Shown here: in pieces, positions 3,077-25,172 of the stretch | Numbering within the stretch: position 1 is the stretch's first letter | Layout of the letters: the number at the start of each line of letters is the position of its first letter | Origin: Paracoccus suum | Lineage (GTDB): Bacteria > Pseudomonadota > Alphaproteobacteria > Rhodobacterales > Rhodobacteraceae | Length of the DNA stretch: 32,000 nucleotides | Assembly: GCF_003324675.1 (NCBI RefSeq) | Contig: NZ_CP030918.1 | Coordinates: 1,710,001-1,742,000 of the forward strand | Direction: 5' to 3' | The notes under the pieces: generated by a model | Database searches by the model: none | What the model was told of the DNA's origin: nothing | What the model saw: the letters and a program-made list of their open reading frames with translations, nothing else | Position numbers and translations under genes: made by a program

Positions 3077-3997
3077 ATGACCCACTGCATCCTGATAGGC
3101 GCCCCTGTGGACGAGGGGCAAAAGCGCGCCGGCTGCCTGATGGGACCGGCGGCCTACCGCGTCGCGGGCCTTGCGCGCACACTGTCCGAACTGGGCCACA
3201 CGGTCGAGGATCGCGGGGATGTCGCGCCTGCCGCCGGGCGCGGCGAGGTCTGCGACAATCCCGCCGTCCATCACCTGCCCGAGATGATCGCCTGGACCGA
3301 GGCGCTGGGCGCGGCGGCGAAATCCGCCATGACAGCCGGCATGCCGATCTTTCTGGGGGGCGATCATGCGCTGTCGCTCGGGACCGTCTCTGGCGTCGCT
3401 GCCCATGCCGCGGCGGCCCAGCGGCCGCTGTTCGTGCTGTGGCTCGACGCCCATTCCGACATCCATTCGCTGATGAGCACCCGGTCGGGCAACATCCACG
3501 GCTGCCCGGTCGGCTACCTGTCCGGTCGCGACGGGTTCGAGCCGATGCCTGCCTTTCCAGCGCCGGTGCCGGGCGCCCAGATCTGCATGTTCGGCATCCG
3601 CAGCGTCGATCCGGCGGAACATGCCGCGCTTTCCGCCTCCGAGATCGAGGTCAATGACATGCGCGTGCTGGACGAGCATGGCATCGTCGCGCCGCTGCGC
3701 GGCTTCCTCGACCGGGTGCGCGCGGCCGACGGTCTGCTGCATGTCTCGCTCGACGTCGATTTCCTCGACCCCTCGATTGCACCGGCGGTCGGCACCACCG
3801 TGCCCGGCGGCGCCACCTTCCGCGAGGCGCATCTGGTCATGGAGATGCTGCACGAGAGCGGCCTTGTCACTTCGCTCGACCTTGTCGAGCTGAACCCGTT
3901 CCTCGACGACCGGGGTCAGACCGCGCGGCTGATGGTCGATCTGGTCGGCAGCCTGATGGGCCGCAAGGTCTTTGACCGCCCGACCCGCGCCAAGTGA
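3077..3997 (+). CDS. rocF: Arginase (ureohydrolase family)
   Basis: Mn-binding signatures GGDHALSLG, WLDAHSDIHS, SLDVDFLDPSIAP, and VELNP near the C-terminus. Confidence 0.9.
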   Translation: MTHCILIGAPVDEGQKRAGCLMGPAAYRVAGLARTLSELGHTVEDRGDVAPAAGRGEVCDNPAVHHLPEMIAWTEALGAAAKSAMTAGMPIFLGGDHALSLGTVSGVAAHAAAAQRPLFVLWLDAHSDIHSLMSTRSGNIHGCPVGYLSGRDGFEPMPAFPAPVPGAQICMFGIRSVDPAEHAALSASEIEVNDMRVLDEHGIVAPLRGFLDRVRAADGLLHVSLDVDFLDPSIAPAVGTTVPGGATFREAHLVMEMLHESGLVTSLDLVELNPFLDDRGQTARLMVDLVGSLMGRKVFDRPTRAK

Positions 3998-4038: not shown

Positions 4039-4076
4039 GCGGGCGTGGCGGAATGGTAGACGCATGGGACTTAAAA
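4039..4076 (+). pseudogene. Truncated 5' half of an intronless tRNA-Leu(UAA) (acceptor 5' strand through the anticodon loop only)
   Basis: GCGGGCG-TG-GCG-GAATGGTAGA-CGC-A-TGGGA-CTTAAAA gives the acceptor strand, D-arm, 5' anticodon stem and loop with anticodon TAA. The next bases are AGTCTTTTTTCTACC, so the expected TCCCA strand, variable arm, T-arm and CCA are missing. Confidence 0.75.
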
Positions 4077-4233
4077 AGTCTTTTTTCTACCATGCTGCAA
4101 AATAGTTTGCGGAAGAGAATTGAATGGTTTTTCAATGCGCTATGAGCGCAGGGTAAGGAAGGCGAAAAAAGGCTGATTTCGTTCTAGGTGCTGCGTAGGA
4201 GCAGAGATCAAGGGCGAGAATCGGCGGCAAAGG

Positions 4234-4534
4234 GCGGACGTGGCGAAATCGGTAGACGCAGCAGACTTTAGAATTGGAGTGCCCGCGGGGAAATCCGCGG
4301 AGTAGAACCGCTCAAAGTCGGGGAACGCTAAAGGGCATCTGCCCTAAGCCAATCCCGAGCCAAGCCCCTCTTCGGGGAAGGTGTAGAGACTGGACGGGCG
4401 GCGCCTAAAGCCTTCGGGCCATGGCGAAGGGACAGTCCAGACCACGAACGCCATAAGGCGGCGGCGAAAGTCGAAGTGGTACGAAAATCTGCTTCTCTGT
4501 GAGAGTACGGGTTCGAGTCCCGTCGTCCGCACCA
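4234..4534 (+). tRNA. trnL(UAA): tRNA-Leu(UAA) interrupted by a group I intron (exon 1 4234-4268, exon 2 4484-4534)
   Basis: Joined exons fold as a class II cloverleaf. Acceptor GCGGACG/CGTCCGC. D-arm GCG-AAATCGGTAGA-CGC. Anticodon stem GCAGA/TCTGC with loop CUU+AAAA. Variable arm UCUC-UGU-GAGA. T-arm ACGGG-TTCGAGT-CCCGT. Discriminator A and an encoded CCA. Confidence 0.9.
4269..4483 (+). ncRNA. Group I self-splicing intron (IC3-like, 215 nt, no ORF) between U34 and A35 of tRNA-Leu(UAA)
   Basis: AAUCCCGAGCCAAGCC and GGAAGGUGUAGAGACUGGACGG match, from memory, the conserved core of the Azoarcus tRNA-Ile and Anabaena tRNA-Leu introns. P1 pairs ACUU|UA with UGGAGU, placing a U.G wobble at the 5' splice site. 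P2 is CCGCGG-G(GAAA)U-CCGCGG. P4 is UCGGG/CCCGA. The intron ends in G4483. Confidence 0.85.
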
Positions 4535-4872
4535 TTATCCAGCGTCACAGGGTGCCGCTGGAATCCAAGCATTAAGCGGTGGCGGATGATCTTGCATCAT
4601 AAGATCGTGTTCGGTGAGTCCGAGTCCAAAATATCGTGCGCGCCATTTGATCTTCGAACTATGAACACTACAGCCGCTGTTCCGAAGATCGAAGTGGAAC
4701 GGGCGTTAACGTTTTCGATCCTCACCCTGTGATGCAGTTCACCTAGCAACGCACCTCAAACCCCGAAATAAAATCCGCTTATGCAGCTTGCGGACGGTCC
4801 CTCTCGAATTCCTATGCAGCAGCATCCTAGAAATAGCTGCGCACTGGAGCGCCGAGGGAGCGTTCATCGCAA

Positions 4873-5034
4873 ATGGCTGGAAATAGTAGGGTCCGGAAGA
4901 ATCAGAACGAGGCGCCGCGCCCTCAGAAAGAGCCAGGGAATGGTGGGCTTGGCTTGCTGCTTGTCCTGGCGATTACCGCGATCGGCGTTGGGTATGTCGG
5001 CTACCCGCTGTCCCTCGTCTTCGGCCTGATCTAA
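4873..5034 (+). CDS. Hypothetical small membrane protein (53 aa, below the ORF-track cutoff)
   Basis: ATG..TAA ORF MAGNSRVRKNQNEAPRPQKEPGNGGLGLLLVLAITAIGVGYVGYPLSLVFGLI: a basic N-terminus followed by one TM helix. The SD is weak and distant. It lies directly upstream of another small membrane ORF. Confidence 0.25.
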   Translation: MAGNSRVRKNQNEAPRPQKEPGNGGLGLLLVLAITAIGVGYVGYPLSLVFGLI

Positions 5035-5053
5035 CGAACGATCCAGGCGTGTT

Positions 5054-5326
5054 ATGCGGTTAGACGAGCAGTCGCGAGAGCACATTGGGCGCTATGGCAT
5101 CAAGCTGGTCGTCGCTGCGGCAATCGCCTACATTCTGAAGAGCGAGAACTTCCTTGCCACATTCGCGCTGTGGACCGGCATATACGGCGTAATGGCCGTC
5201 GCTTACGCAGTTCATCGCGGCGAACGATTCGGCAAGACCAGGTTCACCTATTGGGATGAGGCTCTATGGTTGGCGGCGACGGCGTTGGGTCTCTACATTT
5301 TCAGTGGCCATCAGTTGGCCGTCTGA
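5054..5326 (+). CDS. Hypothetical membrane protein (90 aa, about 3 TM segments)
   Basis: Hydrophobic segments LVVAAAIAYIL, LATFALWTGIYGVMAVAYAV and ALWLAATALGLYIF. No recognisable family. Confidence 0.45.
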   Translation: MRLDEQSREHIGRYGIKLVVAAAIAYILKSENFLATFALWTGIYGVMAVAYAVHRGERFGKTRFTYWDEALWLAATALGLYIFSGHQLAV

Positions 5327-5344
5327 TCGGCCGCTTCTGTTGGT

Positions 5345-6169
5345 TCAAAGAAACCGTGCGGATGCGTCGCCAACGCCTGACAACTCGACCTTCAGTTCCT
5401 GACCAGGAAGGATTTGCAGCAGCATCGGGATGATCGATCCGGTTGCTACGATATCGCCGGCGCTGAGATAATTGCCTCTGGCGATCAGGTCATTCACGAG
5501 CCAGAGCGCAGAGTTGATCGGATCAACCAGCCCCTCTCCCGATGCCGACTGAAACACTGGAACGTTGTTGATCGACGCTCGCATGTCGATTCTGTCCATG
5601 GCCTCCAGGCCTGTTGGCTCATGATATTTGTCGACGATCGTCGAAACATGGAACGCATAGTCAGCAATGGCGGCCAGGTGTGGTTGCCCAGTCAGGTGAC
5701 CACGTCGCCCGACAAGACCGATAGCCGGTTGGTAGCTCAGGATCGCCTTGCAAAATTGATCGCGAGTGATGGGCCAATGGTCCGCCCCCAAGGGACCGCC
5801 TATCGTAAAGACGATTTCGCATTGTGCCCCGATGAAGCCTTGGGGAAGCCGGAACGGCCCGTGGGAGTCCTGAAGAACTGTTCCGACAGGGATCGGGCAG
5901 TAGATGGGACTGGCAAGGCCAAGCGTGCCGCGGATGGCGGGGCAAGTGCCTATCAGGGCGTAGCCTACCGCGTCATTGGCGAAGGCCGCGATTGCTGCTG
6001 ACTGCACCGCCCAGGCGTCATCCTCGCTTCGAAGCAGATCGAACGGGATATCTGAGGTAATTCCCTGCCGACGGTTTTGGCAAAGCAAGTTAGCGAGATA
6101 GTCGAGATTCTGGTCAATCATAGAAGCACACTCCCGCGCGAGAGAGGGCGCAAAGTCGTGCTCAGTCAA
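5345..6169 (-). CDS. 2-keto-4-pentenoate hydratase / 2-oxohepta-3-ene-1,7-dioate hydratase-like protein (MhpD/HpcG family)
   Basis: Pattern similar to MhpD: CEIVFTIG (compare AEIALVL), PAIGLVGRR (compare PALEVVGSR), and the C-terminal ALWLVNDLIARGNYLSAGDIVATGS (compare [25 protein letters not shown]). Confidence 0.6.
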   Translation of the reverse strand: MTEHDFAPSLARECASMIDQNLDYLANLLCQNRRQGITSDIPFDLLRSEDDAWAVQSAAIAAFANDAVGYALIGTCPAIRGTLGLASPIYCPIPVGTVLQDSHGPFRLPQGFIGAQCEIVFTIGGPLGADHWPITRDQFCKAILSYQPAIGLVGRRGHLTGQPHLAAIADYAFHVSTIVDKYHEPTGLEAMDRIDMRASINNVPVFQSASGEGLVDPINSALWLVNDLIARGNYLSAGDIVATGSIIPMLLQILPGQELKVELSGVGDASARFL

Positions 6170-6315
6170 ATAAAAATCCGACTATATAAGTACGTATATT
6201 TTTGTCAGGGCTTTTTCTTATGAAAATACTATCGCAGCGCGGCTGAGCTCCCGTCGAAATAATATGCGGCTCTATCTAGCTTGAGGGTCCCACCAAACCG
6301 GAAGGACCTGAAGGT

Positions 6316-7587
6316 ATGAAGCCGCTTAAACCGTCCCTCGCACCCGCCGCTACGGCCACGGCCGAGGCCGGTCGTCCAACAAGACCGGGGTCGGAGCGTC
6401 GGAAGACGCTTTGCCGGAGCGCGGTTGGCGCGGTCGCGATTATGGCCGGTTCGATGATGGGTCTTGGCCAGGCAGCGGCGGAACCCCTGAGCGCGCCGAG
6501 CTTTGGTGGCCCTCTGCGCCCGAACCCCGATCCGATGAGCATGGATGCGGGCCTGTTTGGTCGCCTTCATATCACCGGCCAGCTCACAGGCATCGGGAAT
6601 GCGCAGACGAACGGCATTCCCGGCGTCGATCCGCGAACGACAGATCCCCTCGTCGATATCGGCAATGCCCAAATTCAGGTGCAGACAACCGGGGCGCCTT
6701 TGACGTTCTTCGTCCAGGGCGGTGTCTACTCGCTGCCTTCTTTGGGCTCGGCCTACACCCGCGCAACCGACGTCACCGATCAGTTGTACGGGCCGGTGCC
6801 GGTTGCTTATGGCAAGCTCGAGCTGTCGCCGAATTTCTCGGTGCAGGCGGGTTTGCTGCCGACGTTGATCGGCGCGGAATCGACCTTCACCTTCCAGAAT
6901 ATGAATATCGCGCGCGGCCTGCTCTGGAACCAGGAGCCGGCGATCAGCCGCGGTGTTCAGGTGAACTATAGCAATGGACCGGTCAACGCCTCGGTGTCGG
7001 TCAATGATGGTTTCTACTCAGGGGATTACAACTGGGTATCCGGTCTCGTGTCTTATGCGGCGACGCCGTCGAGCACGATCACGCTTGTCGCCGCAGACAA
7101 CTTTGCAGAGTCCGGCAAGACCGGCGCCGCGACGCCACTGGCGCAGAACAACAGCAGCATCTTCAATGTGATCTACACCTATGTCGACGGCCCGCTGACG
7201 CTCCAGCCCTACCTGCAATACACAACGGTCCGCTCGAACAGGGACATCGGTATTGATCGCTCGGCCGAAACATTCGGCGGAGCGCTGCTGGCTCGCTATG
7301 CCATCAATGAGAATTTCTCGATCGCTGGACGTGCCGAGTACATCGCTTCAAGCGGAGGAGATTGCGGCGTCGCCGCAGACTGCGCCCCCACCAATCTGCT
7401 CTACGGGCCGAAAAGCAGGGCGTGGTCGCTGACGGTGACGCCGACCTACCAGCGCGGGATCTTCTTCGCGCGTACCGAGCTTTCGTACACCCGCATCGAT
7501 CGGGTCACCGAAGGCTACGGCTTTGGGTCCAACTTCGACAAGCGCGACCAGGTACGCGGGATGTTTGAGGCCGGGGTGCTTTTCTAG
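6316..7587 (+). CDS. Outer-membrane beta-barrel porin-like protein
   Basis: Signal-like AVGAVAIMAGSMMGLGQAAA-EP, alternating beta-strand composition rich in G/Y/N/S/T, and a terminal aromatic residue (...FEAGVLF). Confidence 0.6.
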   Translation: MKPLKPSLAPAATATAEAGRPTRPGSERRKTLCRSAVGAVAIMAGSMMGLGQAAAEPLSAPSFGGPLRPNPDPMSMDAGLFGRLHITGQLTGIGNAQTNGIPGVDPRTTDPLVDIGNAQIQVQTTGAPLTFFVQGGVYSLPSLGSAYTRATDVTDQLYGPVPVAYGKLELSPNFSVQAGLLPTLIGAESTFTFQNMNIARGLLWNQEPAISRGVQVNYSNGPVNASVSVNDGFYSGDYNWVSGLVSYAATPSSTITLVAADNFAESGKTGAATPLAQNNSSIFNVIYTYVDGPLTLQPYLQYTTVRSNRDIGIDRSAETFGGALLARYAINENFSIAGRAEYIASSGGDCGVAADCAPTNLLYGPKSRAWSLTVTPTYQRGIFFARTELSYTRIDRVTEGYGFGSNFDKRDQVRGMFEAGVLF

Positions 7588-7651
7588 GACGGGCGCGGGC
7601 GGAAATGCGGAGCCACCGGCTCCGCAAACGCACTGCGAGCTCAGGTGAAAC

Positions 7652-7960
7652 ATGGGTTTGGAACAGATCATATCGAAATTGGAGGCTCCTCAAGCCACAG
7701 CGACTGTGTATCCGGTCCTGCCCGTTCTCTGGGTCTATCGGAACTATGATGATCGCTGGACTGTGCATCTTGAAGGTGAAGACTCCGAATGGTGCCACCC
7801 GACGCGCAATGATGCGGTCGGTGCGGCAAGGCTGATAGGCGAGAGCTACGGCTGCTACCGCCTCTATCTTCAACTGACAGACGGTCGCTTCTGCCTGGAG
7901 ATGATGAACCTCAGTCGGCGGCGCGAGCCGCGTCAGATGGGGAGCGAGGGCGAAAATTGA
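7652..7960 (+). CDS. Hypothetical protein (102 aa), apparent paralog of 10106..10354
   Basis: SD-like AGGTGA upstream. Shares a D-x-R-x(0-2)-W-T-V ... DA-x(3-4)-AR core with the 82-aa ORF at 10106. Confidence 0.4.
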   Translation: MGLEQIISKLEAPQATATVYPVLPVLWVYRNYDDRWTVHLEGEDSEWCHPTRNDAVGAARLIGESYGCYRLYLQLTDGRFCLEMMNLSRRREPRQMGSEGEN

Positions 7961-8106
7961 GCCGGGCTGTACCAAGCAAGCGCCAAGTCTCCCGACACGT
8001 CTTCCGCTGCGCCGTGGAGATCATCGCTCTGGTGGTGATCGCCGGTTGCGCTGTTCTTGCTGCCGCAGGCCCCAGCATCTACCTAATGTTCAGAAATGGC
8101 GGCTGA
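7957..8106 (+). CDS. Possible translationally coupled small membrane protein (49 aa, TTG start)
   Basis: TTG 7957 overlaps the TGA 7958-7960 of the upstream ORF (ATTGA). Sequence ..VSRHVFRCAVEIIALVVIAGCAVLAAAGPSIYLMFRNGG has one TM helix. Speculative. Confidence 0.2.
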   Translation: MSRAVPSKRQVSRHVFRCAVEIIALVVIAGCAVLAAAGPSIYLMFRNGG

Positions 8107-8130
8107 ATGCAGATTTTCGGGCCGTCCTGC

Positions 8131-8538
8131 TCACCCCAGGTTGCCACGACCAAAACCGAGGTTCAGCAAACGCGAGCGACGCCGTAGATCGGAATACCTG
8201 CTTCTGATGTTTGCTGCGAGCTGTGCCGCGGTGCAGGTCGTCGCCATAGTTTTTCTGAGAGCGGAATGACACGCCCTGCGGCTCCAGATCTCCAAGCCGA
8301 CGATCCAAGGCCGGGTATCGGTGAAAGCCGTCTGGCTGCGCTGCCAGGCCTGAGGACGCAGTTGGTGATGGCTCGGGTCCTCAAGGAGCACCACATCTGG
8401 CTGGCTGTGAGGATTATCGAGGAGCGCGAAGATCAGTCGCAGTTTCGACGGCACCGCCGGCTCCGTGATCTGCTCGAAGCAAATGCCTTGCTTGAAGCGG
8501 TTCTCGAACTCGGAGCGCATCTGCAACCAACGCGGCAT
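8131..8538 (-). CDS. Hypothetical ORF, possibly a relic of a degraded gene
   Basis: 135-aa ORF. The N-terminal 60 aa have protein-like composition (MPRWLQMRSEFENRFKQGICFEQITEPAVPSKLRLIFALLDNPH). The C-terminal half is Arg/Ser-rich and looks non-coding. No family recognised. Confidence 0.2.
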   Translation of the reverse strand: MPRWLQMRSEFENRFKQGICFEQITEPAVPSKLRLIFALLDNPHSQPDVVLLEDPSHHQLRPQAWQRSQTAFTDTRPWIVGLEIWSRRACHSALRKTMATTCTAAQLAANIRSRYSDLRRRSRLLNLGFGRGNLG

Positions 8539-8726
8539 CCTTGGTCGATGGGCCGCTCGGGAGATCGTTGGCGATGTCGCGTGGCGTGGAGCGATCGAGG
8601 CAATTTACGCAGGTGCGTGGGCCGACACGACGATCTGGCCGCTGCCATGCTGATCGCATTGCTGGGCTCCCTCGATCGTCGCCAGCGCCGACCAAAAGAA
8701 CTCTCGAAACGTGGAGAAGAGGCAGC

Positions 8727-9674
8727 ATGAAACCCAGTGGCGACCCTCCGTTATTCGGCGGTCTGATGACCGCACTTGTCACCCCGTACAGGGGTGAGGC
8801 TATCGCTTTCGACGCCTTGGCGGAACTCGCCAACTGGCAGATCGACCAGGGCGTACAGGGGCTTGTCGCCTGCGGCACTACGGGCGAGGCGCCGACCCTG
8901 TCTCATCCGGAATGGGCGGCGGTGATCCGCTTGTGCGTCGAGGTCTCCAATGGCCGTGTGCCGGTGATCGCCGGCTCGGGCACCAACGACACCCGGCGTA
9001 CCGTGGAGTTGACCCGCGAGGCGGCTCGCCTTGGCGCGGATGGTGCTTTGGTCGTCACGCCTTACTATAGTCGGCCGAGCCAAGAGGGCCTGTTCCGGCA
9101 TTTCGAGAGCGTCGCGCAAGCTGCCGAGCTGCCGATCATCATCTATAACGTGCCTTCCCGGACGGCCGTCGATATCAGGATCGAAACGCTCGACCGCCTT
9201 GCGCACCTGCCCGGTCTTGTCGGCGTCAAGGACGCAAGCGGAGATCCGACGCGGGCTAGCACGATGGCCGTCCGATTCGGCGATCGTTTCACGCAGCTTT
9301 CCGGCCATGACCGATCCATGCTGGCTTTCATGGCGACTGGCGGCGACGGCGCCATTTCGGTCGTGTCGAACGTCGCCCCGATGCTGACAGCGGCGATGAT
9401 CGGCGCGGTGCGGAAGAGTGCCTATCTGGAAGCTCGGCGCATCAACGCCCATCTTTTCCCGCTGATCGAGGCGCTGGAGCTTGAAAGCAACCCATGCCCG
9501 GTCAAGTTCGCGTTGCATTGCGCGCGCGGATACTCGCCCGCCGTCCGCCTTCCGCTGGTCGAGGTCACTGAAGGCACCGCAGCAAGAATACGCGCTGCCG
9601 TGGCGGAGATCGACTCCTTGGAGATCGATACGTCTTTGGTCGCCGAGAGGTCTCTCGTCCCCCTCTCGGCCTGA
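8727..9674 (+). CDS. dapA: 4-hydroxy-tetrahydrodipicolinate synthase / DHDPS-family aldolase
   Basis: GTTGEAPTLS, YYSRPSQEG, IYNVPSRT (Tyr and Arg of the active site), and GVKDASGD (Schiff-base Lys). ATG 8727 chosen; the 8541 start of the ORF track adds a non-homologous Arg-rich extension. Confidence 0.85.
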   Translation: MKPSGDPPLFGGLMTALVTPYRGEAIAFDALAELANWQIDQGVQGLVACGTTGEAPTLSHPEWAAVIRLCVEVSNGRVPVIAGSGTNDTRRTVELTREAARLGADGALVVTPYYSRPSQEGLFRHFESVAQAAELPIIIYNVPSRTAVDIRIETLDRLAHLPGLVGVKDASGDPTRASTMAVRFGDRFTQLSGHDRSMLAFMATGGDGAISVVSNVAPMLTAAMIGAVRKSAYLEARRINAHLFPLIEALELESNPCPVKFALHCARGYSPAVRLPLVEVTEGTAARIRAAVAEIDSLEIDTSLVAERSLVPLSA

Positions 9675-9847
9675 TCGGACCGCCCTTATAAGAACAGCAT
9701 GATGCTGCTGTGTTCTCCAATGAAAATACTATGAAATCCGGCTATCCGTGAAATGGAGAACAAATCCCGACATCTTTAAATTCAACGTATCGGCAAAAGG
9801 CATCATTTGACTCGACGAGTGGAAGGGCCTGCCGATACCCAGAAAGG

Positions 9848-10051
9848 ATGTCTGCGATGTACCCTCGTGGTTACTATTTCTATGCGATGCAACAACAGAA
9901 CAAGGCCAACCCTGGGCGGACGGATGGCGAAGCCAAGGTTGCCGTGCGCTCGGATGAGCCGATGGCCGACGTTGGGATGTTCCTGCGGCTCGGAGTCGTG
10001 ATGGCCCTCGTGATTGCGGCCGTCGCCACAGTCACCGCGTTGGCTGGCTAG
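9848..10051 (+). CDS. Hypothetical small membrane-anchored protein (67 aa)
   Basis: C-terminal TM MFLRLGVVMALVIAAVATVTALAG. AAAGGA lies upstream of the start. Confidence 0.3.
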   Translation: MSAMYPRGYYFYAMQQQNKANPGRTDGEAKVAVRSDEPMADVGMFLRLGVVMALVIAAVATVTALAG

Positions 10052-10105
10052 CGCGCCAACGACGTCCACAGCTCACTCTTCAACGAACAATCAGGATCAT
10101 CCACC

Positions 10106-10354
10106 ATGGCAAGCGCCATTCAGCCGAAAGAGCCTCCCCAACCTCTGAACCATTTTTTTGTCGGCCAGGACAACCGAGGATGCTGGACCGTCCGCGATGA
10201 GCGTAACCTCGTCGGCGGCTGCTTTGTCAGCAAGGATGCGGCGATTCACTTCGCCCGTCATGAAACCAATAACGCGCCGGGGGCTGTGATCTGCATGGCC
10301 GAAAGCCAGCGCCTGAGCCTTGACCCGCTGTTTGGACGCCGGGCCGCCGCCTAG
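10106..10354 (+). CDS. Hypothetical protein (82 aa), apparent paralog of 7652..7960
   Basis: AGGA lies 9 nt upstream. Core QDNRGCWTVRDERNLVGGCFVSKDAAIHFAR. A hairpin with a T-tract follows on the same strand. Confidence 0.4.
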   Translation: MASAIQPKEPPQPLNHFFVGQDNRGCWTVRDERNLVGGCFVSKDAAIHFARHETNNAPGAVICMAESQRLSLDPLFGRRAAA

Positions 10355-10443
10355 CCGGTTGCCATCGATCCGACAGAGCCGCGTCACACTCGCTGAATTT
10401 ATCGCGACGATGGCGATGCGAAAGTAACTCTCCCAGTTAAGAT

Positions 10444-10490
10444 AAGCAAAGCTCGCCGCCTCTACCGAGTCGGCGGGCTTTTTGCTTGCC
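10444..10490 (+). terminator. Rho-independent terminator-like hairpin
   Basis: AAGCAAAGC-TCGCCGCC...GGCGGGC-TTTTTGCTT: a GC-rich stem (CCGCC/GGCGG) extended by outer AAGCAAAGC/GCTTTTTGCTT pairing, followed by a T5 run. Confidence 0.5.
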
Positions 10491-10740
10491 AATGGGCGGT
10501 TTGGCAGAAATTCCTATGGAATTTTTATGCAAGCCGCCGAAATAACTATTGGATTCCTATTTTTTGAGGCCCCGTCCTCTCTCGAACCTATATGCGGTTC
10601 GCGTCCATATTTCCGCCAAATTCCTCCTCCGGCACCCGTGCGTACGCAAGGGCGCGCTGGAAGAATTCAACCTGTGACCGGTCAGGACGATCCATCCTGG
10701 GCGGCCATTTGTACCAACAGCGGCGCCGGAGGCGAAAGCA
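10490..10740 (+). promoter_or_regulatory. Putative kdp control region (promoter and possible KdpE operator)
   Basis: AT-rich tract with the perfect inverted repeat AAATTCC-TAT-GGAATTT (10508-10524), repeated ATTCCTAT (10511 and 10553), a TTTTTATGC tract and the palindrome TGACCGGTCA (10675-10684). No TSS can be assigned from sequence alone. Confidence 0.3.
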
Positions 10741-10821
10741 ATGGATGTTCTTGTACTAGCGATAGGGTTCGGATTCTTCGCCTTGATGTTTGGATACATC
10801 AAGCTTTGCGAAAAGCTCTGA
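10741..10821 (+). CDS. Unannotated 26-aa hydrophobic peptide immediately upstream of kdpF
   Basis: GGAGG 8 nt upstream of ATG 10741. Product MDVLVLAIGFGFFALMFGYIKLCEKL is a single TM helix. TGA 10819-10821 lies 16 nt before the kdpF start. Two hairpins sit in its 3' end. Confidence 0.45.
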   Translation: MDVLVLAIGFGFFALMFGYIKLCEKL

Positions 10822-10837
10822 CCCAGGAGGCGGCAAC

Positions 10838-10927
10838 ATGATCTTGGAATATTTCCTTGGGGCAGCAGTCGCGGTGTTTATCACCGGCTACCTGCTTTAC
10901 GCCCTCGCTCGTCCCGAGCGGTTCTGA
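10838..10927 (+). CDS. kdpF: Potassium-transporting ATPase subunit F
   Basis: 29 aa, MILEYFLGAAVAVFITGYLLYALARPERF. It has the KdpF-type GYL(V/L)YAL..(P)E.F motif, AGGAGG upstream, and sits directly before kdpA. Confidence 0.85.
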   Translation: MILEYFLGAAVAVFITGYLLYALARPERF

Positions 10928-10957
10928 TCAAGGCAACAGCTCGGAAAGAAACGACCG

Positions 10958-12655
10958 ATGACAATAAATGGATGGATACAGATCCTAGTCTTTCTCGGGA
11001 TCGTCATCGCGCTGGTGAAGCCGCTCGGCGGCTACATCACGCGTGTCATGAACGGCGAGAGGACCTTCCTTTCGCCGGTTCTGGGACCCGTGGAACGCGG
11101 CCTCTATGGCATGGCCGGAACCAGTGAGAAGGAAGAGCAGCACTGGACGACCTATCTGGGCGCCATGCTGCTGTTCAACCTGGCCGGTTTCGCACTGCTT
11201 TATCTCTTGCAGCGCATCCAGGGCGGTTTGCCCTTCAATCCAGCCGGAATGGGCGCTGTAAGCGCGGATTCGTCGTTCAACACGGCGGTCAGCTTCATGA
11301 CCAACACCAACTGGCAGGGCTATGGCGGCGAAACCACCATGAGCTATCTGACACAGATGGCCGGCATCACGGTGCAGAACTTCGTGTCGGCGGCTGTGGG
11401 CGTGGCCGGGGCCATGGCGATCATTCGCGGCTTCTCTCGCGCGTCCGCCAAGACCGTCGGCAATTTCTGGGTCGATCTGACGCGGGCGACGCTCTACATC
11501 CTGATGCCGATCTGCATCGTCGGCAGCCTGGTGCTGGTGTGGCAAGGCGTTCCGCAGAACCTGAACCCCTACACCGTCGCCACGACGGTTGAAGGCGCTC
11601 AGCAGACTATCGCGCAGGGCCCTGTCGCTTCGCAGATGATCATCAAGCATCTGGGAACGAATGGCGGCGGCTTCTTCAACGCCAACTCTTCCCATCCGTT
11701 CGAGAATCCGACGGCACTGACTAACTTGATCCACATTCTGGCGATCTACTCGATCTCCTTTGCGATGCTGAACGTGTTCGGCCGTATGATCGGTAACCAG
11801 AAGCAGGGTTGGGCACTGCTTGGCGCGGTCCTCAGCATCGTTGTCGCCGGCATCAGCGTCATCTATTGGGCTGAATCCGCTGGAAACCCGCTGCTCCATG
11901 CGCTCGGCCTCGAGGGCGGCAACATGGAAGGCAAGGAGACGCGGTTCGGCATTGCGCTTTCCTCGCTCTTCGCCGTCGTAACGACGTCGGCCTCGACGGG
12001 CGCCGTCAACACTATGCATGACAGCCTCATGCCGCTTGGCGGCCTTGTGCCCCTGTTCAACATGCAGATCCCGCCGCTCGGTGGCATCGGCGCCGGTGTC
12101 TACGGCACCTTGATCTTCGCGATCCTCGCCGTCTTCATCGCCGGTCTGATGGTCGGTCGCACGCCGGAATATATCGGCAAGAAGATCGAGGCCAAGGAAG
12201 TGAAGATGAGCATCCTCGCGATGCTTGGACCGTCGCTCGCCATCTTGGCCCTGACCGCGATCGCCGTCGTTCTTCCTGTTGGCTTGTCCAGCATCCAGGA
12301 CGCTGGCCCGCATGGATTGAGCGAGGTGTTGTACGCCTTCACGTCCGGCGCCAACAACAACGGCAGCGCCTTTGCCGGTCTGAGCGCGAATACGCCCTTC
12401 TACAACATCACTATCGGTCTCGCGATGCTGATGGGGCGCTTCCTGCTCATCGTGCCGGTCCTGGCGATCGCGGGCTCGCTCGCGGCCAAGAAGAGCGTGC
12501 CGGCATCGACGGGAACACTGCCCACGACGGGACCGCTGTTCATCGGCCTTGTCGTTGGCGTGACGCTGATCGTCGGCGGCCTGACGTTCTTCCCGGTCCT
12601 GGCGCTGGGTCCGATCGTCGAGCACTTCGCCATGCTGGCGGGCCAGACGTTCTGA
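10958..12655 (+). CDS. kdpA: Potassium-transporting ATPase potassium-binding subunit A
   Basis: 565 aa polytopic protein with N-terminal [23 protein letters not shown] and [30 protein letters not shown] and [11 protein letters not shown] selectivity-filter-like motifs. Confidence 0.97.
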
Positions 12656-12663
12656 GGATCGCG

Positions 12664-12840
12664 ATGACGGCCAAATGGCTGAGATCGATCCGATTTGTCG
12701 TGAACCCTCGCTCCTGGTTTCAGAAGCGAGGGGCGGCCAGACCGCCCAGGGCATCGACGATCATTCTCGGCATGACACTGACTTTGGGGGGCGTGGTGCT
12801 CCTCGCCAAACTTATCACTGAATTGCTCGCGGCGGCGTGA
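12664..12840 (+). CDS. Candidate 58-aa tail-anchored membrane protein in the kdpA-kdpB spacer
   Basis: GAGGA 5 nt upstream of ATG 12664. Product MTAKWLRSIRFVVNPRSWFQKRGAARPPRASTIILGMTLTLGGVVLLAKLITELLAAA. It fills an otherwise unexplained 227-bp gap. The spacer could instead be structured RNA (hairpins 12705-12732 and 12732-12746). Confidence 0.35.
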   Translation: MTAKWLRSIRFVVNPRSWFQKRGAARPPRASTIILGMTLTLGGVVLLAKLITELLAAA

Positions 12841-12882
12841 CCGAGTGGTTGGCCCCCAAGAACAAACTCGCTGGAGTTTCTT

Positions 12883-14952
12883 ATGAACCAGTCCAAATCC
12901 GCGAGCATGCTGGACGCTCGCATACTTGTACCGGCCATTGGCGATGCCTTCCGGAAACTGAATCCGAAGAGCCTCGCCAAAAACCCCGTAATGTTCGTCG
13001 TCGCGGTCGTCTCGGTGCTGACGACGGTGCTGCTGTTGAAGGACATCGCGACCGGGGCCGAAAATGTCGGCTTCTCGCTGCAGATCGTGCTGTGGCTCTG
13101 GTTCACAGTGCTTTTCGCCAACTTTGCCGAAGCCGTCGCCGAAGGGCGCGGCAAGGCGCAGGCGGAATCGCTTCGGCGCACGCGCAGCGAGACCCAGGCC
13201 AAGCTGCTTTCGAACGGCGGCTCCGACTACAAAATGGTGCCCGGGGCCACGCTGAAGGTTGGTGACGTTGTTCTCGTCGAGCCCGGCGACATCATCCCCT
13301 CTGACGGCGAAGTCATCGAGGGCGTCGCGTCGGTGAACGAAGCGGCTATCACCGGCGAATCGGCCCCTGTCATCCGCGAGTCTGGTGGCGACCGCTCCGC
13401 CGTCACTGGCGGCACGCAAGTGCTCTCCGACTGGATCAAGGTCCGGATCACGGCCGCGGCTGGCTCGACCTTCATCGACAAGATGATCGCTCTCGTTGAA
13501 GGCGCCGAGCGCCAGAAAACGCCGAACGAAATCGCGCTCAATATCCTGCTTGCGGGCATGACGCTGATCTTCGTTCTGGCGGTCGTGACCATTCCGAGCT
13601 TCGCGACCTATGCGGGCGGGTATGTTCCCATCATCGTTCTGGTCGCCCTGTTCGTCACGCTGATTCCGACCACCATTGGCGCACTGCTCTCGGCCATCGG
13701 CATTGCCGGTATGGACCGGCTGGTCCGCTTCAATGTTCTGGCCATGTCCGGCCGTGCCGTTGAAGCCGCTGGCGACGTCGACACGCTGCTGCTCGACAAG
13801 ACCGGCACGATCACGCTCGGCAACCGTCAGGCGAGCGAGTTCCGGCCGATCCGGGGCGTCACCGAAAAGGAACTCGCCGATGCAGCGCAGCTTGCTTCGC
13901 TGGCCGACGAGACCCCCGAAGGCCGCTCGATCGTAGTGCTCGCCAAGGAAAAATACGGCATCCGCGCGCGCGACATGGCGAGCCTCAACGCCACCTTCGT
14001 CCCCTTCACGGCGCAGACCCGGATGAGCGGCGTCGACCTGGACGGTTCGACCATCCGCAAGGGCGCGGTCGATGCGGTTCTGAAGCACGTGGATCTCTCC
14101 ACGGTCGCGACCGGCAGCCCGCGCGCGTCCGCCGAAAGCGTTCGTGAGCTTCAGGGCATCGCCGACCAGATCGCCAAGGCAGGCGGCACGCCGCTCGCCG
14201 TGGTGAAGGATGGCCGCCTGCTCGGCGTCATCTACCTCAAGGACATCGTCAAGGGCGGCATCAAGGAACGGTTCGCCGAGCTGCGCCGCATGGGTATCCG
14301 CACGGTGATGATCACCGGCGACAACCCGATGACCGCGGCGGCCATCGCCGCCGAAGCTGGCGTCGATGACTTCCTGGCGCAGGCGACGCCGGAGAACAAG
14401 CTGGCGCTGATCCGTGAGGAGCAGGCCAAGGGCAAGCTGGTCGCCATGTGTGGTGACGGCACCAATGACGCCCCGGCGCTCGCCCAGGCGGATGTCGGCG
14501 TCGCCATGAACACCGGCACGGTCGCCGCCCGCGAGGCCGGCAACATGGTGGATCTCGACAGCGACCCGACCAAGCTGATCGAGATCGTGGAAATCGGCAA
14601 GCAGTTGCTGATGACGCGCGGCGCGCTGACGACGTTCTCGATCGCCAACGATATCGCGAAGTATTTCGCGATCATCCCGGCGATGTTCCTCGTCTTCTAT
14701 CCGCAGCTCGGCGCGCTCAACATCATGGGCCTCGCTTCGCCCGAGAGCGCGATCCTGTCGGCGATCATCTTCAACGCCCTCATCATCGTGGCGCTGATCC
14801 CGCTGTCGCTGAAAGGCGTCAAGTATCGCGCCATCGGAGCGGGTTCGCTGTTGTCCCGTAACCTCCTGATCTACGGCCTGGGCGGCATTCTCGTGCCCTT
14901 CGCCGGCATCAAACTCATCGACATGGCGATCACCGCCGTCGGTCTCGCCTAA
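12883..14952 (+). CDS. kdpB: Potassium-transporting P-type ATPase catalytic subunit B
   Basis: Near-colinear with E. coli KdpB from memory: [63 protein letters not shown]. Confidence 0.97.
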
Positions 14953-15603
<651 letters not shown>

Positions 15604-15612
15604 ATGAAGCTG

Positions 15613-15639
15613 TCAGGACGGCTATAATAGCCGTCCTGA
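15613..15639 (+). promoter_or_regulatory. Intercistronic stem-loop between kdpC and kdpD with an embedded TATAAT
   Basis: TCAGGACGGC-TATAATA-GCCGTCCTGA. The arms are perfect for 10-12 bp, the loop contains a consensus -10 hexamer (15623-15628), and no T-tract follows. Confidence 0.4.
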
Positions 15640-15661
15640 ACGTTGATCCGGAGTCAACCGA

Positions 15662-18367
15662 GTGTCTGACGACTCAATACGAGAGCAGAGCCGGCCATCG
15701 CCTGATGCATTGCTGGAAAGTGCGCAGCGGGAGACGCGGGGCCACCTCAAGATCTTTCTTGGGGCGGCGCCGGGTGTGGGCAAGACGTATGAGATGCTCA
15801 TGTCGGGCCGGGCTCAGCGGGCCGATGGCGTCGACGTGGTCATCGGGGTGGTCGAGACCCACGGGCGGGCCGAGACCGAGGCTCTGGTCGACGGGTTCGA
15901 GATCGTTCCGCGCCGCACTGTGCCGTATCGAGGGCATGTGCTCGATGAGATGAATATCGACGCAATTCTGGCGCGCAAGCCGGCGCTGGTCCTGGTGGAC
16001 GAGCTCGCCCATACCAACGCGCCGGGCAGTCGCCATCCGAAGCGCTATCTCGATGTCGAGGAACTGCTCGCCAACGGCATAGACGTCTACAGCACCCTTA
16101 ACATTCAGCACGTCGAAAGCCTCAACGACGTGGTAGCGCAGATCACACGGATCCGGGTGCGCGAGACCGTTCCGGATTCGATCATTGACCGCGCCGACGA
16201 TATCGAAATCATCGACATCACGCCGGGCGACCTGATCAAGCGCTTGAACGAGGGCAAGGTCTATCTGCCCAAAACAGCCAAGCGCGCGACGCAGAATTAT
16301 TTTTCGCCCAGCAACCTGACAGCCCTTCGTGAGTTGGCGCTGCGGCGCACAGCGCAGCGGGTCGATGACCAGTTGGTCACGCATATGCAGGCGCATGCCA
16401 TCGCCGGCCCCTGGTCGGCCGGCGAGCGCGTCCTGGTGTGCATCAACGAACGGCCCGGAGCGATGGCGCTTGTCCGCTACGGCCGCCGTCAGGCCGACCG
16501 GCTTCGTGCGCCATGGGCCGCGGTTCACGTCGAGACGAGCAAGGATGGCCGACTCTCAGAGCAGCAGAAGGACAAGATCGCCAGTGCATTGCGTCTTGCC
16601 GAGCAGCTCGGCGCCGAGGCTGTTACCCTGCCAGGCGAGAACGTTGCGCAAGAGATCCTGGCCTACGCATCGACCAACAACTATGCGCACGTCATCGTCG
16701 GCATGCCGACCTCGCCCAGGTGGCGGGAGATCTTCGCGGGCTCCGTTTCGCATGATCTGATCCGCGCCAAGACGGATGTGAGCGTGCATGTCATCTCGCC
16801 GGGCAACGGCGAGGAAACGCGATCTCCAGCGACAGTCAGCGCGCGGCCCAAACGACGAATCGACTTCGGCCACTATCTGTGGAGTTCGCTCTACGTCGCC
16901 ATGGCGCTAGGCATCGGAACGGCGCTCTCGCGCTTTCTGGACGTCCGCAACATCGCCCTCGTCTTTCTGATGGCCGTGCTGGCCTCGGCTATGGGCGGCG
17001 GCCTCTGGCCGGCGCTGTTCGCTTCCGTATTGGGCGCGCTAGTCTTCAACTTCTTTTTCCTCGAACCGCGCTACACGCTGGATATCGGCGATCCCGAGAG
17101 CGTCGTCGCCTTCGCGTTCTTTCTCGGCGTTGCGGTGATCGCCAGCAATCTTGCCGGGCGTGTTCAACGCCAGGCTGTGACAGCACGTCAGCGGGCCAAA
17201 ACGACCGAGGGCCTTTATCTGTTCAGCAAGAAGCTCGCCGGCGCCGGGACCTTGGGCGACGTTCTTTGGGCGACGGTCTATCAGATCGCCTCGATGCTTC
17301 AGGTCAGGGTCGTCGCTCTACTGCCGGAGAATGGCCGCATCGCGGTCCAGGCGGGTTTCCCGCCCGACGATACGCTCGATGACGCCGACATTGCGGCGGC
17401 CCAATGGGCCTGGGAGCATGACAAGCCTGCAGGGCGTGGAGCGGACACGCTGCCGGGTGCGAAGCGCCTCTACCTTCCCCTGAAAACCGGCAGGACACGG
17501 GTGGGCGTCATTGGTCTGGACAATGACAAGCAAGGGCCGGTTCTGACGCCCTTGGAACAGCGGCTGTTCGACTCACTGGCAGATCAGGCCGCTCTGGCGA
17601 TCGAGCGCATCCAGCTGGTCGCCGATGTCGACAATGCGCGTCTGGCCGTCGAGGCGGACAAGCTGCGCTCCGCGCTTTTGACGTCACTATCGCATGACCT
17701 CAAGACGCCTTTGGCGTCGATCCTCGGATCTGCGGGAGCGCTCAGAGACTATTCGACATCCCTGACCGATTCCGGTCGGGTCGAGTTGCTGACGACAATT
17801 GTCGAAGAGGCCGAGCGGCTGAACCGGTTCATCGCGAACCTTCTCGACATGACACGGCTGGAATCCGGCGCTGCGGCGGTGTCGCTGACGCCGCTGTTCA
17901 TCGGCGACAGCGTCGGCAGCGCCCTGCGCCGTGCCGAGAAGATATTGACTCTCCACAGGGTAGACCTTGCAGTGCCGCCCGATCTGCCGATGGTTCGGCT
18001 CGATCCGGTCCTGTTCGAACAGGTGCTGTTCAATCTGCTCGACAATGCCCGCAAATACGCACCGTCAGGGTCGCGGATCGCGCTTCGGGCGTGGGCGGAC
18101 GAGAGCCACGTCACATTGCAGGTCGTCGATGAAGGGCCCGGCATTCCGCCCGACGATCTCACCAGGATTTTCGACAGTTTCTATCGCGTCCGGAAGAAGG
18201 ACCACGTCCAGGCTGGAACCGGGCTTGGACTTTCCATCTGCAAGGGATTTGTCGAGGCGATGGGCGGAACGATTTTCGCGACCAACCGGGCCGACAGACC
18301 CGGCGCCATTTTCACGCTGCGGTTTCCGATCGGACCGGAGCCCTCGACTTTGGAAGGAAGGATATGA
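15662..18367 (+). CDS. kdpD: Sensor histidine kinase KdpD
   Basis: GTG start with GGAG 8 nt upstream. N-terminal KdpD domain with Walker A (GAAPGVGKTY), a USP-like region, 4 TM segments, a GAF-like segment, H-box LSHDLKTPL, and N/G boxes (LLDNARKY, DEGPGI, GTGLGLSICKG). Confidence 0.95.
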   Translation: MSDDSIREQSRPSPDALLESAQRETRGHLKIFLGAAPGVGKTYEMLMSGRAQRADGVDVVIGVVETHGRAETEALVDGFEIVPRRTVPYRGHVLDEMNIDAILARKPALVLVDELAHTNAPGSRHPKRYLDVEELLANGIDVYSTLNIQHVESLNDVVAQITRIRVRETVPDSIIDRADDIEIIDITPGDLIKRLNEGKVYLPKTAKRATQNYFSPSNLTALRELALRRTAQRVDDQLVTHMQAHAIAGPWSAGERVLVCINERPGAMALVRYGRRQADRLRAPWAAVHVETSKDGRLSEQQKDKIASALRLAEQLGAEAVTLPGENVAQEILAYASTNNYAHVIVGMPTSPRWREIFAGSVSHDLIRAKTDVSVHVISPGNGEETRSPATVSARPKRRIDFGHYLWSSLYVAMALGIGTALSRFLDVRNIALVFLMAVLASAMGGGLWPALFASVLGALVFNFFFLEPRYTLDIGDPESVVAFAFFLGVAVIASNLAGRVQRQAVTARQRAKTTEGLYLFSKKLAGAGTLGDVLWATVYQIASMLQVRVVALLPENGRIAVQAGFPPDDTLDDADIAAAQWAWEHDKPAGRGADTLPGAKRLYLPLKTGRTRVGVIGLDNDKQGPVLTPLEQRLFDSLADQAALAIERIQLVADVDNARLAVEADKLRSALLTSLSHDLKTPLASILGSAGALRDYSTSLTDSGRVELLTTIVEEAERLNRFIANLLDMTRLESGAAAVSLTPLFIGDSVGSALRRAEKILTLHRVDLAVPPDLPMVRLDPVLFEQVLFNLLDNARKYAPSGSRIALRAWADESHVTLQVVDEGPGIPPDDLTRIFDSFYRVRKKDHVQAGTGLGLSICKGFVEAMGGTIFATNRADRPGAIFTLRFPIGPEPSTLEGRI

Positions 18368-19059
18368 GTACGTCCGTAGTCAAGATTCTCGTCGTCGATG
18401 ACGAACCGCCGATCAGGAAGCTCCTGCGTGTCGGGCTGACAGCAGAGGGCTATGCCATGGTCGAGGCTGCAAACGGCGAGGAGGCCGTCGCGCTCCTCAC
18501 AGAGGAGAAGCCCGATCTCATTCTGCTCGATCTTGGGCTGCCCGATATCTCCGGCCATGAGCTGCTCGAAAGGTGGCGGGCCGAGCTTGTCGAGCTGCCG
18601 ATCGTGATCCTCTCCAGCCGGACCGATGAAACGGGCATCGTCAAGGCGCTGGAACTGGGCGCCGACGATTATCTGACCAAACCATTCGGGATGCGCGAGC
18701 TAGCGGCGCGCATTCGGGTGGCGCTCAGGCACAAGCTCCAGCAGCAGGGCGAACGCCCGATATTCCAGGTCGGCGATCTCTCGGTCGACCTGGTGAAGCG
18801 GATCGTCAAGGTCGCAGACAAGGAGGTGAAGCTCTCACCCAAGGAATATGAAATCCTGCGCGTTCTCGTGCAGCACGCGGGCAAGGTCATTACGCACCAG
18901 CACATCCTCCAGCATGTGTGGGGCGGCGCGACCGATGTCCAATATCTGCGGGTCTATGTCCGCCAGTTGCGGCAGAAGATCGAGGCCACGCCCGATCAAC
19001 CGCAATATATCCTGACTGAAACAGGTGTCGGTTACCGCCTCCGTGAGCCGGAGCAGTGA
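18364..19059 (+). CDS. kdpE: OmpR-family response regulator KdpE
   Basis: ATGA overlap with kdpD. Receiver domain (ILVVDDE, DLILLDLGLPD, KP) plus a winged-helix domain (LSPKEYEILRVL, YLRVYVRQLRQKIE, GVGYRL). Confidence 0.95.
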   Translation: MSTSVVKILVVDDEPPIRKLLRVGLTAEGYAMVEAANGEEAVALLTEEKPDLILLDLGLPDISGHELLERWRAELVELPIVILSSRTDETGIVKALELGADDYLTKPFGMRELAARIRVALRHKLQQQGERPIFQVGDLSVDLVKRIVKVADKEVKLSPKEYEILRVLVQHAGKVITHQHILQHVWGGATDVQYLRVYVRQLRQKIEATPDQPQYILTETGVGYRLREPEQ

Positions 19060-19105
19060 CCGCGCGCGCTCGTCCACGGGCGGGCGACTTAACGTGAGTA
19101 CTCTT

Positions 19106-19558
19106 ATGAACCTGTCATCTGCAATTGCACCAGAGGACGTGATCCTTGATCTATCCATCTCGACAAAAGCCGTCCTGATCAAGAAGCTGGCCGCGCATGC
19201 GGCCGCCCGCACGGGGCTGACCGAGGAAGCGATCCACACAGCTTTGCTGGGCCGCGAACGTCTGGGTTCGACCGGCATCGGTCATGGCGTCGCCATGCCT
19301 CATGCACCGGTCCCCGGGCTGCAGACATCCTTTGCGGCGCTGATGGTGCTGAAGAAGCCAATCGATTTCGAGTCGGTGGACGACCTTCCCGTCGATGTTG
19401 TCTTTCTGCTGCTGTCGTCCCCCGAAGGCAGCAACGAATACCTGAAGATTCTCGCGGCGGTCGCCCGTCGGACGCGCGATGAGCAGGTCATGAAAATGCT
19501 GCGCGGCGCTAAGACCGCGCCTGCCGCGTATTCGGTCCTGGTAGAACAGCCGGTATGA
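19106..19558 (+). CDS. ptsN: PTS EIIA-Ntr-like protein (PtsN paralog)
   Basis: EIIA (fructose/nitrogen-type) domain. RERLGSTGIGHGVAMPHA contains the phosphorylatable His; DVVFLLLSP-like DVVFLLLSSPEG and YLKILAAVAR also present. Same strand, 46 nt after kdpE. GTG 19094 is an alternative start. Confidence 0.85.
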   Translation: MNLSSAIAPEDVILDLSISTKAVLIKKLAAHAAARTGLTEEAIHTALLGRERLGSTGIGHGVAMPHAPVPGLQTSFAALMVLKKPIDFESVDDLPVDVVFLLLSSPEGSNEYLKILAAVARRTRDEQVMKMLRGAKTAPAAYSVLVEQPV

Positions 19559-19727
19559 GGAGGTTCCGACGGCCGGATCGACAAGAGGTCGTCGAGGTCA
19601 CCGGCGTCGCCCGAACGGCGGTGCCGGGGCTGACCGTGGTCGTCTTTTCCAAATGGGATTGTTGCCCAAGGCCGTTGGTCCTGAGGCATTTATCGCTTCC
19701 TCCGCCGATTGATTGAAGGGCGACCGG

Positions 19728-20705: not shown

Positions 20706-20733
20706 TCTTGCCGGATCGGGGTCCGGGTCGCGA

Positions 20734-20955
20734 TCACTCGCGATGTCGGCGCGCTTTGGCGAACCCCCGGTCCGTCGCCATAAACCGCTCAAGCATCGGA
20801 ACAATGAGCTTTTTGGGGTCGATGACGGGTTGGCCGGATTCACGGCCAAGCGCGTCCGCATAGGCACTGAGGTCGCGGTGAAGAGCGCCGGGGAGATCCA
20901 GGGTTATCTTCACTGGCTTGTCCTCGGCGATCGGGCCGAGCTTCAGTTTGGTCAT
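20734..20955 (-). CDS. DUF2274-type protein (conserved tail gene of trb operons in ICEs)
   Basis: 73 aa, MTKLKLGPIAEDKPVKITLDLPGALHRDLSAYADALGRE... ATGA overlap with trbI. Position and sequence pattern are typical of the gene following trbI in Tn4371-like ICEs (from memory). Confidence 0.7.
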   Translation of the reverse strand: MTKLKLGPIAEDKPVKITLDLPGALHRDLSAYADALGRESGQPVIDPKKLIVPMLERFMATDRGFAKARRHRE

Positions 20956-25169: not shown

Positions 25170-25172
25170 GGA

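Follow-up and report, generated by a model that had tools for sequence, protein, structure and literature searches.

A large conjugative element probably splits the tRNA-Leu(UAA) gene of Paracoccus suum and carries an intron-containing replacement

In Paracoccus suum, the 5' half of a tRNA-Leu(UAA) gene stands just upstream of a complete, intron-containing gene for the same tRNA. How such an arrangement could arise, and which of the two sequences is native to the host, was addressed by computational analysis of a 32,000-nucleotide stretch of contig NZ_CP030918.1 (positions 1,710,001 to 1,742,000; hereafter “the window”, to which all unattributed coordinates refer). The half, at 4039-4076, reads GCGGGCGTGGCGGAATGGTAGACGCATGGGACTTAAAA, and AGTCTTTTTTCTACC follows right after the anticodon loop. 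An earlier note on this DNA had proposed that a mobile element disrupted the resident trnL(UAA) and carries its own intron-containing copy. This proposal is now well supported, by a junction that recurs in other hosts and by an empty site in relatives: very probably, positions 4039-4534 are the attL of a large ICE of the Tn4371/ICEMlSymR7A kind, which splits trnL(UAA) and brings a replacement with it. The features concerned are compiled in Table 1.

A scan of species-representative genomes with the arginase protein encoded upstream of the half yielded 80 Paracoccaceae loci (best amino acid identity 82%), across which the order metG-arginase is kept. The empty site that had been expected in relatives is present among them: in nine Paracoccus loci (L002, L004, L005, L006, L010, L013, L015, L022 and L040), an intact intronless trnL(UAA) directly follows arginase, ~45 nt 3' of its stop codon; in L007, the native gene is not located after arginase but elsewhere in the genome. 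Compared to the 5' part of these intact Paracoccus genes, the fragment is identical at 37 of 37 or 38 of 38 positions (L006, L007, L010 and others), which bears out its first assignment as a trnL(UAA) 5' half reaching through the anticodon loop. The native loops read CTTAAAC (L006) or CTTAAAA (L007, L010), so that similarity to the host gene stops at 4075 or 4076, depending on the native allele; homology indeed ends where the loop ends, as had been claimed. The fragment is single-copy in the window, and 100 shuffles gave no match with three or fewer mismatches. In none of the 80 relatives does arginase adjoin a gene that the window has to the right of the tRNA. These alignments show the host origin of the 4039-4076 half, the empty site and the position of the junction; the half is now dead and remains joined to the arginase flank.

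The 3' half that is missing after the loop was not found by pattern search in the window (27.5 kb to the right of the junction), within 14 kb in L105 or within 8 kb in L114; among all loci retrieved, the search detected it in L023 only. At the junction, ARAGORN finds no tRNA in the window, L087, L093, L105, L114 or L116, and in none of them is the split gene regenerated by element sequence on the left side. The architecture is thus atypical compared to integration that regenerates its target, as had been suspected.

Table 1. Coordinates of the split trnL(UAA), the adjoining element arm, the carried tRNA gene and the element genes in the window
Feature	Position	Strand	Remarks
Arginase gene	3077..3997	+	Pfam Arginase, E = 3.9e-68; host flank and synteny anchor
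Orphaned 5' half of resident trnL(UAA), positions 1-38	4039..4076	+	host arm of the left junction (putative attL)
Candidate crossover core ACTTAAAA	4069..4076	+	anticodon loop plus last stem base; sole stretch common to all host halves and the element
Element arm (spacer), 157 nt, 47% G+C	4077..4233	+	blocks conserved in all variants (10 aligned, including the tRNA-Leu(CAA) sister)
Spacer block TCTACCA(T)	4086-4093	+	reverse complement of tRNA D-loop (A)TGGTAGA, 4053-4060
Spacer blocks TAGGTGC and TAGGAGCA	4185-4191 and 4196-4203		11 nt apart; alignment of 10 variants
Spacer block GAATCGG	4218-4224		alignment of 10 variants
5' exon of element trnL(UAA)	4234..4268	+	ends at U34
Group I intron, 215 nt	4269..4483	+	between U34 and A35 of the anticodon; ends in G
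3' exon of element trnL(UAA)	4484..4534	+	to the CCA end
Cargo region of conjugative element	4535..20950	.	gene order beside the module is kept in further hosts
o5054	5054-5326		cargo
FAA-hydrolase-like	5345-6169	-	cargo, Pfam
BBP2 porin	6316-7587		cargo, Pfam
DHDPS	8541-9674		cargo, Pfam
kdpABC	10958-15603		cargo, Pfam
kdpD	15662-18367		cargo, Pfam
kdpE	18364-19059		cargo, Pfam
LysR regulator	19713-20705		cargo, Pfam
trbB-C-D-E-J-K-L-F-G-I mating-pair formation operon	20951..30316	-	Pfam TrbI, CagX, VirB8, TrbL, TrbE, T2SSE

The site of the crossover can be narrowed down from the variation among hosts. The host halves vary in their anticodon-stem strands (TGGGA, AGGGA, CAGGA, CGGGA, GCAGA, AAGCA, CCGGA) as far as the last base ahead of the core; with this variation reaching the loop, the only block that all hosts share with the element is (A)CTTAAAA, which is found in 10 host halves and all element copies. 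Similarity of the plasmid and element copies to the window starts at 4067, and a repeat search of the whole window detected no second copy of core or spacer.

The junction is also symmetrical. The invariant spacer block TCTACCAT (4086-4093) is the reverse complement of the D-loop sequence ATGGTAGA (4053-4060), and AAGTC at 4076-4080 mirrors GACTT at 4068-4072; taken together, the two correspondences make the junction an imperfect palindrome of ~50 bp, centred on the anticodon loop, and the same symmetry is seen in a variant that targets tRNA-Leu(CAA). The arms of the palindrome are putative paired binding sites of a recombinase. A small hairpin followed by T6 (GACTT-AAA-AAGTC), to which the earlier note had drawn attention, is present at the junction and is weak. 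As a terminator it was rejected: it has 5 bp, of which two are G-C pairs, it fails a terminator scan, and it is absent in the CAA sister. Being weak and missing there, it is better read as part of the attachment-site symmetry. A consensus scan of positions 3900-4700 detected neither a sigma-70 promoter nor a terminator. The change in base composition that had been noticed by eye is real at the junction, but it is local only: G+C content falls from 0.658 (1-4038) to 0.471 in the spacer, amounts to 0.587 over 4077-10900, and is back to 0.651 in the trb genes.

The carried trnL(UAA) is complete and spans 4234-4534. Its joined exons form an 86-nt class II tRNA-Leu(UAA) with a normal cloverleaf, a long variable arm, A73 and CCA (ARAGORN, tRNA-Leu(taa)). 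The differences from the host half that had been listed, in the acceptor strand (GCGGGCG in the half, GCGGACG in the carried gene) and in the anticodon stem (TGGGA and GCAGA, respectively), hold, and the D-loops differ as well. Searching the entire window with ARAGORN, and with Rfam at gathering thresholds, yields no tRNA; a match to the group I intron model RF00028 at 4259-4463, covering the full model length, appears only at an E-value threshold (35.5 bits, E = 2.6e-7; gathering score 50). The splice sites lie in the contexts ...CTT/TAG... and ...TACG/AAAA, with a predicted P1 that contains U-G pairs. In a consensus fold of the whole intron-containing gene from 15 distinct sequences, 14 of 91 predicted pairs, counted over intron and tRNA arms together, still pair although both partners have changed, and covariation is seen in the variable arm and in the T stem. 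The exons are identical or nearly so in every copy linked to a conjugative element and in the plasmid copy. With its conserved exons, canonical spliced product and compensatory pairs, the carried trnL(UAA) looks functional; positions 4269-4483 are presumably self-splicing, and the carried precursor would be spliced accordingly.

The same spacer and intron-containing trnL are fused, at the same loop nucleotide, to 10 different host tRNA-Leu 5' halves, which occur in 12 flank contexts. A metagenome scan with a 20-mer across the break revealed five environmental contexts with different trnL(UAA) 5' halves, and an exact look-up of the 90-residue product of 5054-5326, which is independent of the DNA pattern, contributed six more host halves (contexts L128, L130-L132, L134 and L135); the 20-mer had no match in viral contigs. 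The D-stems of the host halves covary (GCG/CGC, ATG/CAT, GTG/CAC), and the halves therefore derive from working host genes. Judged from the sequences, a junction that recurs in this way is what conservative site-specific recombination inside the anticodon loop leaves behind.

In L137 (8980-9014), the element end lacks a tRNA half on the left side of ACTTAAAAAGTC; the flank there resembles none of the other sequences retrieved, and a copy in the same genome is truncated by IS21 next to trbB (L123). The non-tRNA left arms, namely those of L137 and of the plasmids described below, were considered as the other arm of the element; a tblastx comparison with all loci retrieved yielded no match. Their genes belong to the NOV_C/DUF3883 family or to no family.

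To the right of the junction, a mobile element had been suspected, and the comparison with other hosts supports it: the junction with the 10 host halves is continuous elsewhere with an element that carries kdp and trb genes. Window stretches 4038-5400 or 4765-5400 are found in other hosts at 94-97% nucleotide identity; in L128, L131, L132, L135 and L137, the match to 4038-5400 is unbroken at 94-95%. L105, which has another host half and flank, shares the cargo through kdpD, with proteins that are 89-100% identical at the amino acid level (kdpA 76%). The order trbBCDEJ(K)LFGI is the same in L118-L127, and the exact TrbD sequence occurs in 276 collection blocks, always in the gene order trbB-I, DUF2274, LysR, EIIA and kdpE. 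The distance from the core to trbD is 24.6 kb in the window as well as in contig Ga0180221_1000054. In related copies, the end of the module and the trb, TraG, relaxase and RepA genes reside on the same contigs, spaced as in the window. Beyond trb, the relatives encode TraG, a DUF3363 relaxase, SLT, DUF736, TraF, DUF2840, an RHH protein, ParA and RepA and, further along, a Toprim protein, a strawberry-notch helicase, ParB_N and ArdC; the relaxase, the TraG coupling protein, TraF and RepA/ParA are located outside the window, on the module-bearing contigs of these copies. The element exceeds 62 kb in CAYFEL020000006.1, where the core is located near 465,374 and ParA at 415,253. Gene content and order show that the module belongs to a conjugative element similar to Tn4371 and ICEMlSymR7A. 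No integrase was detected in the window (Pfam), which covers 28 kb of the element, or in ~62 kb of related copies. A walk towards the far end, via homologues of ParA, the strawberry-notch helicase and the Toprim protein in related genomes, met ParB_N, RadC, ArdC, AbiE, HEPN, a dnaE2-like gene, contig ends and degenerate Bradyrhizobium copies, and neither an integrase nor a junction.

Two further observations concern the DNA just 3' of the element tRNA. A 408-nt stretch of the window (4798-5205), which overlaps the small open reading frames 4781-5029 and 5054-5326, recurs with 91% identity in 25 large conjugative plasmids from Enterobacterales, Providencia and Aeromonas. In L133 (9540-9600) and L136 (7121-9600), the tRNA module is absent and a P4-like integrase abuts a tRNA-like 3' end (...GTTCGAATCGTGTCGGGCGCGCCA), in L136 with a defence island beside it; similarity to the window resumes at 4634, in a related short stretch (ATCGTGCGCGCCA; window 4600-4640). 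This arrangement suggests a further attachment site within the element.

The design is not confined to this target or to this element. In L129 (9103-9383), the break lies in the loop (CTCAAAA) of a host tRNA-Leu(CAA); behind the remaining, dead 5' half come a homologous spacer and a complete intronless tRNA-Leu(CAA), the loop of which (TTCAAAA) is one base off the crossover core; the spacer keeps the invariant blocks TCTACCA, CTAGGTGCA...TAGGTGCA and GAATCGG. By its sequence, L129 is a sister variant of the same conjugative element that targets tRNA-Leu(CAA). In L023 (5417-7863), L026 (10979-11190) and L028 (10953-11185), the trnL(UAA) after arginase is split, in its anticodon loop, by another element, of 2.35 kb, the gene content of which is limited to a tyrosine integrase and a 77-nt tRNA. 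Its left junction in L023 consists of the 5' half and CTTAAACTCCC, followed by the 77-nt tRNA with anticodon UAA; then come the tyrosine integrase (Arm-DNA-bind_3 and Phage_integrase), a non-tRNA arm, CTTAAACTCCC again and the native 3' half through CCA, so that CTTAAACTCCC is an 11-nt direct repeat at both junctions. In L026 and L028, the old halves are decayed, as expected for dead DNA. The 77-nt tRNA has a short variable arm and A73, an unusual class-I shape with a leucine anticodon. The alignments show the design again in further hosts and in two more types of element; in three designs, the carried anticodon matches the disrupted target (UAA in the window, CAA in L129, UAA in L023). This match is the main argument for regarding the carried gene as a substitute, and most likely it supplies the tRNA-Leu(UAA) that the host has lost.

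These data could be accounted for in the following manner: The element would insert by site-specific recombination inside the 7-nt loop (CTTAAAA) of the resident trnL(UAA). The host 5' half would stay on the arginase flank, and the element would start in the loop, with its 157-nt arm, which presumably bears recombinase binding sites, in place of the expected matching 3' half. The element's own complete trnL(UAA), with its intron at U34/A35, may then cover the lost tRNA-Leu(UAA). A recombinase is presumed to act, and the far junction would comprise a non-tRNA element arm, CTTAAAA and the host 3' half (TCCC..., ending CGCCCGCACCA or CGTCCGCACCA). In the strongest competing explanation, integration would be ordinary and merely mirror-imaged, the far end rebuilding a hybrid tRNA from an element-borne 5' half, the 4039-4076 fragment being no more than a displaced remnant and the intron-containing gene accessory cargo; a like layout occurs in a 10-kb element of Anabaena variabilis (bioRxiv 10.64898/2025.12.09.693284), and the available views of the large element stop short of its far end. 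We nevertheless regard this as unlikely: three independent designs carry a full tRNA that matches the target anticodon, which is hard to explain if the target is rebuilt; L023 reveals both ends, and no tRNA is formed at the far junction there; and the two junctions without a host half (the plasmids and L137) have no tRNA-like left arm.

Six Paracoccus loci have an intron-type trnL(UAA) near arginase that is ~85% identical to that of the element (L001 13166-13476, L009 13149-13459, L011 11000-11312, L012 8798-9107, L032 6061-6366 and L051 13138-13443). No 5' fragment, element spacer or element downstream sequence was found in these six loci; their gene could be native or a domesticated relic of the element.

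Such Paracoccus genomes, with an intron-type gene near arginase and neither fragment nor element, lend some credit to another view, in which some earlier event unconnected with the element left the fragment behind (decay of an island, a deletion, or illegitimate recombination upon transfer of chromosomal DNA from an intron-type Paracoccus) and the element merely lies nearby; the arginase-trnL locus is, moreover, a hot spot, the content of which varies among relatives. This view is nonetheless very improbable, since 12 unrelated flank contexts have this junction at exactly the same nucleotide, element DNA extends unbroken to the right of it, and the half in the window, unlike those in L026 and L028, is undecayed. 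Local duplication and pseudogenisation of the neighbouring gene, conceivable in view of the two tRNA-Leu(UAA)-like sequences at a distance of 195 nt, or a fortuitous resemblance to a tRNA have next to no probability and were rejected: ~7 positions distinguish the fragment from the 5' exon of its neighbour, and it is identical to the native allele of relatives, a different allele as the earlier note had held, and the shuffles contained no match.

A relic of the module is found on resistance plasmids. More than 1300 of them, from Escherichia, Klebsiella, Salmonella, Acinetobacter, Shewanella and other hosts, contain a segment with 85% identity to window positions 4067-4534. The segment has a DUF3883/NOV_C gene on one side and, on the other, tmrB plus aac(3)-IId, which directly follow it (for example in pCTX-M3, NC_004464.2, L082, 6001-6466); its exons are identical to those of the window, and its left arm contains no tRNA half. 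Among 5426 complete E. coli genomes, 646 have the relic, with only “hypothetical protein” listed under the match. The arrangement suggests that the tmrB/aac(3)-IId segment was captured from an element of this conjugative family, and through the relic, the environmental origin of an aminoglycoside resistance gene common in the clinic might be traced.

Beyond the very probable reading of 4039-4534 as an attL with a carried replacement, a wider scheme may be put forward tentatively, and we think it rather less likely than not to be correct as a whole: an essential single-copy tRNA gene is inactivated, and the host comes to depend on the copy of the element; the intron, any role of which is presumed here, would remove the 7-bp core from the element's own gene, a C32-to-T loop change taking its place in the CAA sister; and the dependence would explain the relics. 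If this is true, the element can neither recombine with, nor be invaded at, its own tRNA gene, and the mature tRNA is unchanged. The dependence would then explain the Paracoccus genomes in which the sole trnL(UAA) nearby is of the intron type, and the plasmids that carry the gene beside tmrB/aac(3)-IId.

Several consequences reach further than this locus. An abundant family, one protein of which occurs in 702 blocks of the assembly collection, breaks the rule that an island restores its tRNA, and tools that seek a rebuilt gene plus a 3' fragment will miss or mis-delimit such islands. The intron-type gene goes uncalled, since ARAGORN and Rfam return nothing in the window at default thresholds, and the only tRNA-Leu(UAA) of a host may be overlooked for the same reason. 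A group I intron on a conjugative vehicle provides a concrete route for the patchy distribution of bacterial tRNA introns, and it raises the testable idea that the intron benefits the mobile element itself.

Islands that tyrosine integrases place in tRNA genes, with the anticodon loop as one sublocation, are said to have been described by Williams in 2002. As a norm, an island restores the tRNA gene that it splits and displaces a 3' fragment of it (PMC4383910, Islander database); since the split gene is not restored at the junction, the present case lacks one of the defining features of tRNA-targeting islands (PMC4383910). In both, the target is a tRNA gene, the crossover falls within the 7-nt anticodon loop, target and element have a short block of identity in common, relatives offer an empty site and a displaced fragment lies at one end; different are the 5' half by the host flank, the absence of a rebuilt gene at the left junction and the complete gene 157 nt inside the element. 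The closest layout is that of the tRNA-Cys of Anabaena variabilis, where a 38-bp 5' fragment, a 10-kb element and a complete tRNA-Cys are found (bioRxiv 10.64898/2025.12.09.693284). There, too, the 38-bp fragment ends at the anticodon loop and lies upstream of the element, but the rebuilt gene follows 10 kb on, whereas here the element's own gene is 157 nt away, differs in both of its halves and has an intron.

The backbone of Tn4371 and ICEMlSymR7A has been described for Proteobacteria (PMC8627217, PMC11448139). It agrees with the present element in RepA, ParA, an RHH/RdfS-like protein, DUF2840, TraF (S26), DUF736, SLT, the DUF3363 relaxase, TraG and trbBCDEJKLFGI, and in the position of cargo after trbI. 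Classical Tn4371 uses a short non-tRNA site. Unlike the present element, neither is known to carry an intron-containing copy of its target. Group I introns are known from the anticodon loops of bacterial tRNAs, namely cyanobacterial and plastid tRNA-Leu(UAA), Azoarcus tRNA-Ile and Agrobacterium tRNA-Arg. The intron of the carried gene shares with the cyanobacterial one the gene and the U34/A35 insertion point, and with bacterial tRNA introns a small size (215 nt here), the absence of an open reading frame and a conserved catalytic core; it differs in its location, on an alphaproteobacterial conjugative element and an enterobacterial plasmid relic instead of a vertically inherited chromosomal gene. 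A literature search returned no description of a split tRNA gene together with a carried intron-containing copy, nor of such an intron on a conjugative element or a plasmid relic, which does not prove that none exists. The backbone and the crossover in the anticodon loop are known; the new part is the carried intron-containing substitute without restoration of the target.
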